Shown here: piece by piece, positions 5,551 to 63,897 of the stretch
Position numbering within the stretch: position 1 is the first letter of the stretch
Layout of the letters: each line of letters opens with the position of its first letter
NCBI RefSeq assembly: GCF_045037415.1
Contig: NZ_CP173438.1
Reading direction: 5' to 3' (one strand)
Source: Escherichia coli
GTDB taxonomy: Bacteria; Pseudomonadota; Gammaproteobacteria; Enterobacterales; Enterobacteriaceae
Length of the DNA: 64,000 bases
The notes under the pieces: generated by a model
The model's input: only the letters and a program-made list of their open reading frames with translations
Database searches by the model: none
What the model was told of the DNA's origin: nothing
Translations under genes and position numbers: made by a program

Positions 5551-6535
5551 AACCGAAGCGAACATCTCGTCCATGCGGTTCATCGAGATCCTGCCACGGA
5601 CCAATTGAAATAATCCCCGTAGGGTTGATGGTCTTATGGCTGCGGAAGTAATGATTACGGATGTGATCGAAATTGACTGTTTCGGCAATTCCCGGCATCT
5701 GGTAGATATCGCGCAGGAAGCCATACAGATTCAGGTAATCGCTGATGCGGTGCTTATCACACTTGAAGTGGGTCACATACACTGGATCAAAACGCACCAG
5801 CGTGGTCCACAGGCGAATATCGGCTTCGGTTAGCTGGTTGCCGGTCAGGTAACGGTGCTGACCTAAAATCTGTTCCAGTCGCGCCAGCGATTCAAACACT
5901 TTCGCCACCGCCTCGTCGTAGGCTTGCTGGCTGGTGGCAAAACCGGCTTTATACACGCCATTGTTAATGGTGTCGTAAATCCAGCCGTTAAGTTCGTCAA
6001 TTTTCGGTTGCAGGGCTGGTGGGTAGTAATCTCCAGCTTTCGCACCCAGCGCATCAAACGCGGTATTGAACATGCGTATGATTTCTGCTGATTCGTTGCT
6101 GACGATGGTGTGGTTTTTTTTGTCCCACAGCACGGGAACAGTAACTCGTCCGCTGTAGTGTGGATCGGCGTGGAGATAAAGCTGATACAGAAATTCATGT
6201 TGATAGAGCGTGTCGCCGCTTGCTCCCGGAAAACTGTCATCAAAGGTCCAGCCGTTTTCCAGCATCAGCGGGTTCACTACGGAAACGGAAATAAACGGTT
6301 CCAGTCCTTTGAGCTTACGCATGATCAGCGTGCGGTGTGCCCACGGGCAGGCGAGTGAAACATAGAGATGATAACGATCTTTCTCTGCGGCAAAACCGCC
6401 TTTGCCAGTGGGGCCTGGCGCGCCATCGGCAGTGAGCCAGTTACGAAATGCGGAAGCTGAACGTTGAAATTTACCGCCGGTGGATTTGGTATCGTACCAG
6501 GTGTCATGCCAGACGCCGTCAATCAGTTGACCCAT
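5549..6535 (-). CDS. yqjG: glutathionyl-hydroquinone reductase YqjG (Xi-class GST)
   Basis: ORF ...MGQLIDGVWHDTWYDTKSTGGKFQRSASAFRNW...; start taken at MGQLIDG. Confidence 0.9.
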   Translation of the reverse strand: MGQLIDGVWHDTWYDTKSTGGKFQRSASAFRNWLTADGAPGPTGKGGFAAEKDRYHLYVSLACPWAHRTLIMRKLKGLEPFISVSVVNPLMLENGWTFDDSFPGASGDTLYQHEFLYQLYLHADPHYSGRVTVPVLWDKKNHTIVSNESAEIIRMFNTAFDALGAKAGDYYPPALQPKIDELNGWIYDTINNGVYKAGFATSQQAYDEAVAKVFESLARLEQILGQHRYLTGNQLTEADIRLWTTLVRFDPVYVTHFKCDKHRISDYLNLYGFLRDIYQMPGIAETVNFDHIRNHYFRSHKTINPTGIISIGPWQDLDEPHGRDVRFG

Positions 6536-60383: not shown

Positions 60384-61817
60384 ATGAAAGTAACGCTGCC
60401 AGAGTTTGAACGTGCAGGAGTGATGGTGGTTGGTGATGTGATGCTGGATCGTTACTGGTACGGTCCCACCAGCCGTATCTCGCCGGAAGCGCCGGTACCC
60501 GTGGTTAAAGTGAATACCATCGAAGAACGTCCGGGCGGCGCGGCTAACGTGGCGATGAATATCGCTTCTCTCGGTGCTAATGCACGCCTGGTCGGGTTGA
60601 CGGGCATTGACGATGCGGCGCGCGCGCTCAGTAAATCTCTGGCCGACGTCAACGTTAAATGCGACTTTGTTTCTGTACCGACGCATCCGACTATCACCAA
60701 ATTACGGGTACTTTCCCGTAACCAACAGCTGATCCGTCTGGATTTCGAAGAAGGTTTCGAAGGGGTTGATCCGCAGCCGCTGCACGAGCGGATTAATCAG
60801 GCACTGAGTTCGATTGGCGCGCTGGTGCTTTCTGACTACGCCAAAGGTGCGCTGGCAAGCGTACAGCAGATGATCCAACTGGCGCGTAAAGCGGGTGTTC
60901 CGGTGCTGATTGATCCAAAAGGTACCGATTTTGAGCGCTACCGCGGCGCTACGCTGTTAACGCCGAATCTCTCGGAATTTGAAGCTGTTGTCGGTAAATG
61001 TAAGACCGAAGAAGAGATTGTTGAGCGCGGCATGAAACTGATTGCCGATTACGAACTCTCGGCTCTGTTAGTGACCCGTTCCGAACAGGGTATGTCGCTG
61101 CTGCAACCGGGTAAAGCGCCGCTGCATATGCCAACCCAGGCGCAGGAAGTGTATGACGTTACCGGTGCGGGCGACACGGTGATTGGCGTCCTGGCGGCAA
61201 CGCTGGCAGCGGGTAATTCGCTGGAAGAAGCCTGCTTCTTTGCCAATGCGGCGGCTGGTGTGGTGGTCGGCAAACTGGGGACATCCACGGTTTCGCCGAT
61301 CGAGCTGGAAAACGCAGTACGTGGACGTGCAGATACCGGCTTTGGTGTGATGACCGAAGAGGAACTGAAGCTTGCTGTAGCGGCAGCGCGTAAACGCGGT
61401 GAAAAAGTGGTGATGACCAACGGTGTCTTTGACATCCTGCACGCCGGGCACGTCTCTTATCTGGCAAATGCCCGTAAACTGGGTGACCGTTTGATTGTCG
61501 CTGTGAACAGCGATGCCTCCACCAAACGGCTGAAAGGGGATTCCCGCCCCGTTAACCCGCTCGAACAGCGTATGATTGTGCTGGGCGCACTGGAAGCGGT
61601 CGACTGGGTGGTGTCGTTTGAAGAGGACACACCGCAGCGCTTGATCGCCGGGATCTTGCCAGATCTGCTGGTGAAAGGCGGCGACTATAAACCAGAAGAG
61701 ATTGCCGGGAGTAAAGAAGTCTGGGCCAACGGTGGCGAAGTGCTGGTGCTCAACTTTGAAGACGGTTGCTCGACGACCAACATCATCAAGAAGATCCAAC
61801 TGGATAAAAAAGGCTAA
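60384..61817 (+). CDS. hldE: bifunctional D-beta-D-heptose 7-phosphate kinase / heptose 1-phosphate adenylyltransferase HldE (RfaE)
   Basis: 477-aa [60 protein letters not shown]... Confidence 0.95.
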
Positions 61818-61896
61818 CTGGAAAGCGGTTCACAGATCTCGCTTCGTAGCAGGCAGGTCTATTGACGCTGTTGTTTTTTCAACCTAAAGTAAAGGA

Positions 61897-62046
61897 ACAA
61901 GGGTAAGGGAGGATTTCTCCCCCCTCTGATGAGTTGTTAGTAAGTCGGGAAACTTAACAGTAACAACACAACCAGTATGATGACGAACTTCATCATAACC
62001 CTTTCCTTCTATAAGGCCCCTTCCTCGGGAGGGGCTTTCCCGTTTC
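61897..62046 (+). ncRNA. Sib antisense sRNA (type I antitoxin of Ibs), SibD/SibE-type; ends approximate
   Basis: Plus-strand promoter TTGACG(61862-61867)-N17-TAAAGT(61885-61890); transcript would fully cover the minus-strand ibs ORF; GC-rich hairpin ggcccc..ggggc plus U-rich tail at about 62015-62046. Confidence 0.6.
61937..61996 (-). CDS. Ibs type I toxin (19-aa hydrophobic peptide), IbsD/IbsE-type; not in ORF track
   Basis: Minus-strand atgatgaagttcgtcatcatactggttgtgttgttactgttaagtttcccgacttactaa = MMKFVIILVVLLLLSFPTY*, the Ibs family pattern (MM start, hydrophobic core, ..SFPxY end). Confidence 0.75.
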   Translation of the reverse strand: MMKFVIILVVLLLLSFPTY

Positions 62047-62185
62047 AGCCCCTTGCTGACTCCCCGATTGTTGATGAGCGCCGGACCCCGCGCAACGCTT
62101 TCCCAGAGGCAGTTTTGCCTTCCCCGAGCAGTCACGCAAAATGCTGCAACAGCCTGATCATTTGCACCTTTTAGCGGAACGCAGA

Positions 62186-62220
62186 TATAAAAAATCCCCG
62201 GCTTTTTGGGCCAGGGATTA
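62186..62220 (-). terminator. intrinsic terminator of yqiK
   Basis: minus-strand UCCCUGGC-CCAAAAA-GCCGGGGA hairpin followed by UUUUUUAUAU. Confidence 0.65.
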
Positions 62221-62235
62221 TTCATAGAAGAGGGT

Positions 62236-63897
62236 TTACTCTGCTTTTTCTTCGACGGGAGTTGTTGAGCTTAAGGATGAAGTCAATGCCGCCAGTGAGC
62301 CGCCTGAAACGCCAATTTCATTGAGCAAGGAGTCAATCAGCGGTGCCTGTGTGCGGTAAGAGAGTGCGGCTGATAACGCTTGTTCTGCCAGGTTTCCGCC
62401 CCCCACATTACCCGTGTTTGCATCACCCGTAGCGCCGCCACGATTCAGACCATCGACCTGAATAATTTTGATGCCGTCGATAGACTTCATAGGCTCAACG
62501 GATTTCTCAATTACCGCAGGCAGCGCCTGCAATAATGCCAGTTTGAATTTAAGGCTGGTTTGTTCATCAGAAAGTACGTTGATAGCATCGTTCAGCGCAC
62601 GTTGTGCTTCTGCTTCCGCCAGACCCTTTTTACGTGTAGCTTCGGCTAACTCAACGATAGCCGCCGCCTGCATTTCTGCGGCTTCTTTTTCTGCTTTCGC
62701 CCGCACGGTCAGTTCAACCGCTTTGGTTTCTGCATCCTGCGCTGCGGCGATCAACGCCACTTGTTTAGCACGATCGGCTTCGGCAGTCTGGCGAGTGGTT
62801 TCTACGTTTTGTTGGGCGCTTACTGCTTCTGCGAGTGCAAGGTTAGCACGCGCTTCTGCCTGGGACTGTTGTTCCGATTTGGCGGCAATAGCGATCGATT
62901 TCGTCTGGTTAGCGATTTCGGTGACCTGCTGCTGTTCGATCTCTTTAATGCGAACTTCACGTTCGGCCTCAACCTTTCTTGAGCGGACGGCCTGTTCGCG
63001 GTCGATTTCCGTTTCCTGAATCTGTCGTTCAGCCAGAATTCGCGTCTGCTCTGCTTCACGACGACGTTCAGCTTCAAAAGCCGCAATTTTCGCATTCTGC
63101 TCAGCGGTACGGGTTTTAACCTGCTGCTCCTGCTCAAGCGTCATAAACGCTTCTTGTTGTTCAATCTCCAACTTGCGCGAAAGTGCATCACGGTTTTTCT
63201 CACGCACTGCGACTTCCACATCCTGTTCAACTTCGTTACGTTCGCGACGACGGCGCTCCGTCTCCTGAGTCAGTTTGGTTAAACCTTCGGCGTCAAAGGC
63301 ATTGTTCGGATTGAAATGTTCTTTCGAGGTCTGGTTAAAGTTGGTAAGTGAAACGCTTTCCAGTTCCAGGCCATTTTTCGACAGATCTTCAGCTACGGTA
63401 TTTTGTACTCCCTGCACGAAGTTCTCGCGGGTATCCTGTAACTCATGCATGGTCATTTGTGCCGCTGTTGCACGGAGGGCATCGACAAATTTATCTTCCA
63501 CCAGCATACGTAAGTCTTCAGGCGACAGGGTGCGTTGCCCCAGCGTCTGGGCGGCGGTGGCAATCCCTTCTACTGAAGGTTTTACCCGCACAAAGAAAGC
63601 AACCACGACATCGACGCGCATACGATCTTTCGTAATCAGGCTATCAATGGTTGAGCGGCTGACTTCCAGCTTCAGGGTATTCATATTGATGGGAATTATT
63701 TCATGAAAGATCGGCATCACGATTGCGCCACCGCTCATCACCACTTTTTGCCCACTTAAACCAGTACGAACAAATGCTTGCTCTGCCGAAGCGCGACGAT
63801 AGAGCCTGGCGAAAATAATTCCAATAATAAACAGAATGCATACGGCGATAATCGCGGTAAACATCCAGGAGGGCACAGAATTAACGATATCATCCAT
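62236..63897 (-). CDS. yqiK: flotillin-like SPFH/band-7 protein YqiK
   Basis: 553-aa ORF MDDIVNSVPSWMFTAIIAVCILFIIGIIFARLYRRASAEQAFVRTGLSGQKVVMSGG... with long Ala/Glu-rich coiled coil. Confidence 0.9.
   Translation of the reverse strand: MDDIVNSVPSWMFTAIIAVCILFIIGIIFARLYRRASAEQAFVRTGLSGQKVVMSGGAIVMPIFHEIIPINMNTLKLEVSRSTIDSLITKDRMRVDVVVAFFVRVKPSVEGIATAAQTLGQRTLSPEDLRMLVEDKFVDALRATAAQMTMHELQDTRENFVQGVQNTVAEDLSKNGLELESVSLTNFNQTSKEHFNPNNAFDAEGLTKLTQETERRRRERNEVEQDVEVAVREKNRDALSRKLEIEQQEAFMTLEQEQQVKTRTAEQNAKIAAFEAERRREAEQTRILAERQIQETEIDREQAVRSRKVEAEREVRIKEIEQQQVTEIANQTKSIAIAAKSEQQSQAEARANLALAEAVSAQQNVETTRQTAEADRAKQVALIAAAQDAETKAVELTVRAKAEKEAAEMQAAAIVELAEATRKKGLAEAEAQRALNDAINVLSDEQTSLKFKLALLQALPAVIEKSVEPMKSIDGIKIIQVDGLNRGGATGDANTGNVGGGNLAEQALSAALSYRTQAPLIDSLLNEIGVSGGSLAALTSSLSSTTPVEEKAE

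Follow-up and report, generated by a model that had tools for sequence, protein, structure and literature searches.

One sibE/ibsE-type copy of the Sib/Ibs toxin-antitoxin system in the hldE-yqiK gap of an Escherichia coli chromosome

The gap between hldE and yqiK in this Escherichia coli chromosome raises two questions: does it hold a Sib/Ibs type I toxin-antitoxin locus, as proposed in an earlier note, and does it hold a single copy where K-12 carries two? We analysed a window of 64,000 nt from E. coli (NZ_CP173438.1, assembly GCF_045037415.1), in which the gap occupies positions 61818-62235. It is 418 bp long and runs from the end of hldE at 61817 to the end of the minus-strand yqiK at 62236. 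The features that frame it are the following.

60384..61817, plus strand: hldE, the left flank; a 477-aa ORF, 100% identical to the annotated HldE of SK1144
62236..63897, minus strand: yqiK, the right flank; a 553-aa ORF, named "flotillin family protein" in matching records
62189..62218, minus strand: intrinsic terminator hairpin of yqiK; terminator scan, 10 pairs, then TTTTATATCT

We hold with great confidence that the gap contains one intact sibE/ibsE-type copy of the chromosomal enterobacterial Sib/Ibs type I toxin-antitoxin system. The proposal of such a locus is upheld by an Rfam match, by translation of the toxin ORF and by the RefSeq annotation of ibsE on the identical sequence in SK1144 and CFT073. 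The genes hldE and yqiK flank Sib/Ibs here, in K-12, in CFT073 and in four other genera; this is the usual site, and the locus is real but ordinary. It is already known, is already annotated in public records and implies no new biology. The yqiK terminator hairpin, which is kept across genera, marks the right boundary of a 375-bp Escherichia repeat unit. As it belongs to this repeat, two-copy strains such as K-12 carry an extra hairpin, and indeed it is present again in K-12 between sibE and sibD.

The toxin gene is encoded on the minus strand, where the following features can be placed.

61937..61996, minus strand: ibs toxin ORF, IbsE type, MMKFVIILVVLLLLSFPTY, stop included; from translation
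61999..62006, minus strand: ibs Shine-Dalgarno region GGAAAGGG, 2 nt before ATGATG; read from the sequence
61899..62060, minus strand: predicted ibs mRNA of about 162 nt; ends placed by homology with the Han 2010 primers for ibsD +1 and ibsD+163
62067..62072, minus strand: putative -10 box of the ibs promoter, AACAAT; 7 nt upstream of the homologous +1
62090..62095, minus strand: putative -35 box of the ibs promoter, TTGCGC, with a 17-nt spacer; placed by conservation of TTG

Reading from 61996 to 61937 yields a peptide of 19 aa and, since the ORF lister has a minimum of 20 aa, the Ibs toxin was indeed absent from the ORF track, as the earlier note had claimed. The peptide shares 18 of its 19 residues with K-12 IbsE, the sole change being L4F, and conforms to the pattern of the hydrophobic Ibs peptides, which are 18-19 residues long, MM[KRH]xVIILxxLLxxS[FL]xxY. 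Both the length of 19 aa and the pattern MMx.VIIL..LL..S...Y are kept in approximately 55 homologous ORFs. In SK1144 and CFT073, RefSeq gives the identical peptide the name ibsE (WP_001387082.1, "type I toxin-antitoxin system Ibs family toxin"). The L4F change is unremarkable, since residue 4 is the most variable position of the family (L, F, H, Y, R, Q, S, V, M, W and P all occur) and F4 is also found in E. albertii and in further Escherichia copies. Toxicity of Salmonella IbsA needs a basic residue at position 3 and Leu11 (preprint, bioRxiv 10.1101/2025.05.26.656083); with K3 and L11, the window peptide has both of the residues required there.

The ibs Shine-Dalgarno sequence is invariant in 23 of 23 aligned homologues (columns 101-116). 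To place the start of the mRNA we relied on the ibsD +1 primer, GTCAGCAGGGGGCTG (PMC2943612), the window equivalent of which is GTCAGCAAGGGGCTG, read on the minus strand from 62060. Upstream of this position, GATTGTT is found in all hldE-yqiK units, from four genera, except one with GATTGCT, and the flanks diverge; the TTG of the -35 box (CAA on the plus strand) is kept in all full-length units except one, that of C. amalonaticus. The AACAAT/TTGCGC pair drew no call from a consensus promoter scan, for which it is too weak, and we infer from its position and conservation that it is the ibs promoter.

Opposite the toxin gene, the plus strand carries the elements of the antitoxin RNA.

61862..61867, plus strand: -35 box of the Sib promoter, TTGACG; promoter scan, first bases of the Rfam model
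61885..61890, plus strand: -10 box of the Sib promoter, TAAAGT; promoter scan, ends 7 nt before the predicted +1
61897..62040, plus strand: Sib antitoxin RNA, SibE type, about 144 nt, +1 = A; predicted transcript, from homology with NC_000913 sibE and the SibD primers of Han 2010
61942..61964, plus strand: TRD1 equivalent (P5 loop; pairs inside the ibs ORF), approximate; SibC +46..+68 mapped by position, PMC2943612
61995..62011, plus strand: TRD2 equivalent (pairs with the ibs translation-initiation region), approximate; SibC +99..+115 mapped by position, PMC2943612
62013..62038, plus strand: intrinsic terminator hairpin of Sib, then UUUCCCGUUU; 11-bp GC-rich stem in both the MFE and the centroid fold

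A covariance-model search of the whole 64-kb window with Rfam matched RF00113 (SIB_RNA) at 61862-62011 on the plus strand, over the full model (1-147), with 142.2 bits and E = 2e-29. This score is far above chance, the gathering score of the family being 56 bits, and the match was reproduced when the gap alone served as the query. SIB_RNA was the sole non-tRNA Rfam match within the window; a tRNA gene with anticodon CAU, found at 41568-41640 on the minus strand (73 bits), bears no relation to the Sib/Ibs finding. The SIB_RNA model reaches from the Sib -35 box to a point short of the terminator, so 61862-62011 are not the ends of the RNA, which by homology lie at 61897 and 62040. In NC_000913.3 the annotated sibE is 144 nt long, with one end 40 nt past the stop codon of ibsE and the other 44 nt ahead of its start codon, and the same geometry carried over to the window gives 61897-62040. 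The 5' primer for SibD starts with ACAAGGGT (Han et al. 2010, PMC2943612), and its equivalent in the window lies at 61897; homology with K-12 sibE and the SibD +1 primer thus lead to the same plus-strand start, which is also that of the earlier note. The primer for the SibD 3' end finishes with ...GGGAGGGGCTTT (PMC2943612), and here the window equivalent ends at 62038. As had been proposed, the antisense RNA would cover the whole ibs ORF, although its length is 142-144 nt rather than about 150 nt; it would also span the ribosome-binding site. The ibs ORF lies wholly inside, and antisense to, Sib at 61897-62040, and with the transcript ends placed through K-12 homology and the primers, the Sib and ibs RNAs would be complementary over about 140 nt.

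The promoter scan returned 2 promoter-like sites against 0.3 expected. One is TTGACG-17-TAAAGT at 61862-61890, the sigma-70 promoter previously proposed for the plus strand. It is conserved across four genera: GACG of the -35 box is kept in every hldE-yqiK unit of Escherichia, Citrobacter, Kluyvera and Phytobacter, and the -10 box, TAGAGT in K-12 sibE, is TAAAGT in the window, in K-12 sibD and in most other genera. The other site, TTAACA-16-TATGAT at 61954-61981 on the plus strand, lies inside Sib and matches at 10/12 positions. We set it aside as a promoter: its -35 falls in the variable, non-conserved TRD1 loop, its -10 is the complement of the ibs start-codon region, and it is probably incidental. 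The hairpin expected downstream of the Sib promoter is present at 62013-62038, followed by UUUCCCGUUU, and is kept in 23 homologues.

The plus strand folds into a multi-hairpin structure with an MFE of -51.8 kcal/mol (z = -3.4). The consensus fold of 23 Sib homologues comprises a closing stem P1, a 5' hairpin, the TRD1 stem-loop, a hairpin over the ibs start and the terminator, all of which the MFE fold of the window shows as well. Of its 35 pairs the majority are invariant, and compensatory changes occur in 3. The TRD1 of the window, GTTGTTAGTAAGTCGGGAAACTTAACAG, is that of K-12 SibE and of the proximal copy in E. albertii, whereas that of SibD differs; the TRD2 equivalent lies opposite the ibs start codon and Shine-Dalgarno sequence. 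SibC, SibD and SibE start with +1 A and are largely NAD-capped in stationary phase, and their promoters are stimulated by ppGpp and DksA (PMC12956327); the window Sib retains the +1A and its immediate context. Judged by sequence, the locus is intact: the Sib promoter, +1A and terminator, the ibs Shine-Dalgarno sequence, start and stop, and the putative ibs promoter are all present and conserved across genera. Each element described in the earlier note lies where it had been placed, and the observation is confirmed in every detail, the length of the RNA being refined as described.

How many copies does the gap contain? In K-12 the gap measures 794 bp and holds the tandem copies that the earlier note had named, ibsE (MMKLVIILVVLLLLSFPTY) beside hldE and ibsD (MMKLVIILIVLLLVSFAAY) beside yqiK, spaced 375 bp apart. 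The 418 bp of the window amount to one 375-bp unit versus two in K-12, so the single copy and the difference in number both stand. Alignment of the gap to K-12 and other strains showed it to be homologous to sib/ibs units, with a core 97% identical to that of K-12 sibE. We looked for a second copy in all 64 kb with the 359-bp unit (blastn) and with the IbsE and IbsD peptides (tblastn), and the matches were at chance level only. Similarly, a permissive Rfam scan of the gap brought up no second copy; it gave a sub-threshold match of 29.9 bits on the opposite strand of the same element, and a chance NsiR1 match over the yqiK terminator.

The single-copy state is common and already on record. We searched 5426 complete E. 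coli genomes with a 651-bp query across the gap, and 5425 of them gave a match. In approximately 1325 of the 5426 (about 24%) a single place covers the whole query, which is the single-copy form; in the remaining genomes a second unit comes next, so that the alignment breaks off at query base 519 (window 62218). Matches of at least 99% identity to the query were found in 887 records. CFT073 is among the one-copy genomes, and adherent-invasive (AIEC) strain NRG857c, with four Ibs loci, has an ibsE homologue alone at the hldE-yqiK position (PMC7232551).

To place this copy number in the history of the locus, we scanned one genome per species with an exact pattern and obtained 47 loci, from Escherichia, Citrobacter, Salmonella, Kluyvera, Pseudocitrobacter, Phytobacter and some further enterobacteria. 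Among the loci that included hldE and yqiK, those of Citrobacter, Kluyvera, Phytobacter and one further enterobacterial genome had one Sib in a gap of 465-550 bp, and those of E. albertii and Escherichia sp. E1V33 had two. Salmonella Typhimurium has one copy at the same site (preprint, bioRxiv 10.1101/2025.05.26.656083). We then aligned 18 hldE-yqiK units from Escherichia, Citrobacter, Kluyvera and Phytobacter. The TRD1 loop of the proximal E. albertii copy equals that of K-12 SibE and the loop of its distal copy that of K-12 SibD; the TRD1 of the window is of the E type. Since E. albertii has two copies with E and D loops identical to those of K-12, and other genera have one, it is probable that the E-type core survives in the window and that the D copy has been lost. 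On this reconstruction, an enterobacterial ancestor would have had one Sib/Ibs copy between hldE and yqiK, which was duplicated in tandem and diverged into E and D before the split of E. coli and E. albertii. Later, the D-type core would have disappeared from the CFT073-like lineage of the window, probably when one 375-bp unit recombined with the other, and this lineage would have retained the E-type Sib/ibs core with the E flank on the hldE side and the D flank on the yqiK side. The flanks of the window unit are indeed of these types, its hldE-side flank matching the E unit and its yqiK-side flank the D unit.

A less probable but serious alternative is that the single copy is the ancestral state, shared with the ancestor of Citrobacter and Salmonella, and that the two-copy form arose later and spread among other Escherichia by recombination; the system would be Sib/Ibs in either case. 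Every non-Escherichia genus examined has one copy, single-copy genomes are numerous, with alleles 4-8% apart from one another (H8 96.3%, H10 92.3%), and the GTDB representative of E. coli, which is single-copy as well, speaks against a deletion. To the right of the Sib terminator, the window is a mosaic in which sites like K-12 E and sites like K-12 D alternate. We sought an E-to-D crossover point at these informative sites, and their alternation rules out calling any breakpoint, so that the right half of the unit shows no clean crossover. Such a mosaic fits gene conversion between the repeats, and it fits a retained older single-copy state too. Set against the ancestral single copy are the outgroup E. 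albertii, which has two copies with loops identical to those of K-12 SibE and SibD, and Escherichia sp. E1V33, which also has two. The core of the window, moreover, bears the derived E-type loop, unlike the loop common to the other genera, and tandem 375-bp repeats are readily collapsed by recombination. We therefore favour retention of the E-type core with loss of the D copy.

Two further observations were made in the course of these comparisons. In Escherichia whittamii NZ_JACSQI010000008.1 (locus L031, approximately 5960-6036), homology is lost past the Sib terminator, where the contig continues as Nextera mosaic-end adapter sequence (CTGTCTCTTATACACA), apparently an artefact of the assembly. 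Three ibs-like ORFs at Sib loci elsewhere in Citrobacter, Kluyvera and their relatives extend to at least 30 codons, the stop after Tyr19 being missing or the frame changed, and these may be decayed copies.

The alignment of units also drew attention to ACGCAAAA at 62134-62141 (TTTTGCGT on the ibs strand), -74 to -81 from the predicted ibs +1. This sequence is invariant in 16 of 16 full-length hldE-yqiK units from Escherichia, Citrobacter, Kluyvera and Phytobacter, amid scrambled surroundings. It is conceivable, if rather doubtful, that it is a regulator site that times the ibs promoter, and that the collapse of E and D put partly D-type upstream sequence on an E-type core and thereby altered control.

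How the pair would work in this strain can be sketched from its relatives. Each Sib RNA uses TRD1 and TRD2 to repress its cognate ibs mRNA and no other, whereupon pairing spreads and RNase III cleaves; in these K-12 pairs the expressed peptide is toxic, and only the cognate Sib relieves the toxicity (PMC2943612). In Salmonella, the peptide encoded at this intergenic site depletes ATP, reduces the membrane potential and binds ATP synthase at subunits a and b of Fo, a target described in one preprint for a peptide that differs at several positions (bioRxiv 10.1101/2025.05.26.656083). In the window, a weak minus-strand promoter would produce the ibs mRNA of about 162 nt for a hydrophobic inner-membrane peptide of 19 residues, and a stronger sigma-70 promoter on the plus strand would produce the Sib RNA of about 144 nt, which would pair without a mismatch with about 140 nt of the ibs mRNA. 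First contact between the two would be made through two exposed regions, TRD1 in the ORF and TRD2 over the ribosome-binding site; as pairing extends, translation would be blocked and RNase III would cut the duplex, so that the toxin is normally not made. The peptide, if made, may collapse membrane potential and ATP, as the peptide of the Salmonella orthologue does through the Fo a and b subunits. For the window allele we infer this mechanism from the K-12 and Salmonella relatives, and the transcript ends and both promoters are placed by homology only.

Could the locus instead be a silent remnant, with one or both transcripts no longer made in this strain or the peptide no longer toxic? The -10 box TAAAGT and F4, which both differ from K-12 sibE/ibsE, might be read in this way. 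However, TAAAGT is also found as the -10 box in K-12 sibD and in the majority of other genera, no position of the family varies more than residue 4, which is F in E. albertii and other Escherichia copies, the ORF, Shine-Dalgarno sequence, terminators, K3 and L11 are intact, and the allele is nearly fixed in many genomes, as the 887 near-identical records attest. We consider decay of this kind very improbable and retain the reading of an intact locus. That one of the two long ORFs of the gap (113 aa, 61884-62225, minus strand; 65 aa, 61977-62174, plus strand) is a real protein gene is scarcely credible: both are open in the window, but in each of the two K-12 units both frames are shifted or cut short by 1-nt indels that fall between the Sib terminator and the ibs start, other genera show little conservation and irregularly sized gaps past the terminator, RefSeq annotates neither ORF in SK1144, CFT073 or K-12, and neither matched any NCBIfam family at E <= 1. 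With their frames broken in K-12 and no family match, we rejected both as genes; by their sequence they are artefacts, as the earlier note had held. In Salmonella, a comparable 65-aa call was proved experimentally to be a mis-annotation of the 19-aa toxin (bioRxiv 10.1101/2025.05.26.656083).

The significance of the locus beyond annotation is small. About a quarter of complete E. coli genomes have one unit in the hldE-yqiK gap and most of the others have two, a difference that could serve as a lineage marker, and in one-copy strains the SibD/IbsD pair is wholly missing. ORF cut-offs of at least 20 aa hide genuine 19-aa toxins and put spurious long ORFs in the same gap, and in most strains RefSeq annotates the toxin and leaves the Sib RNA without annotation.

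One of the known systems with which the locus can be compared is ibsA/sibA of Salmonella Typhimurium, in the yqiK-rfaE gap (bioRxiv 10.1101/2025.05.26.656083). As in the window, a single copy occupies the orthologous intergenic site and the toxin has 19 aa, with Leu11 and a basic third residue; Sib is antisense to it and has a promoter of its own, as predicted for the window. The two peptides differ in sequence, that of Salmonella reading MMHQVIILIVLLLISF..Y in the construct list, and the virulence role and ATP synthase target have been demonstrated in Salmonella only. K-12 sibD/ibsD (b4447/b4664) shares with the window its family, the yqiK-proximal flank, the terminator hairpin and the -10 box TAAAGT; in contrast, its core is 89.5% identical to that of the window over 142 nt, TRD1 and TRD2 are unlike, and IbsD (MMKLVIILIVLLLVSFAAY) differs from the window peptide at 5 positions. 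TRD differences of the SibD/SibE kind prevent cross-repression (Han 2010, PMC2943612).

A closer match is K-12 sibE/ibsE, which likewise lies beside hldE, with a Sib 97% identical over 142 nt, an identical TRD1 loop, a peptide alike at 18/19 residues and equal transcript geometry. This pair is b4611/b4666 of K-12 MG1655 (Fozo et al. 2008, Mol Microbiol 70:1076). The window differs from it by L4F, by a -10 box TAAAGT instead of TAGAGT and by three base changes around TRD2 and the terminator; furthermore, unlike K-12 sibE, the window unit directly abuts yqiK, since no sibD/ibsD unit comes after it. From ibsE of CFT073 and SK1144 there is essentially no difference, and RefSeq there has the toxin CDS only, with no Sib RNA. 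Both strains have one copy encoding the identical Ibs peptide; in CFT073 (C_RS29495, WP_001387082.1) the gap differs at 2 of 418 bases, and in SK1144 the 651-bp region is 100% identical to that of the window.
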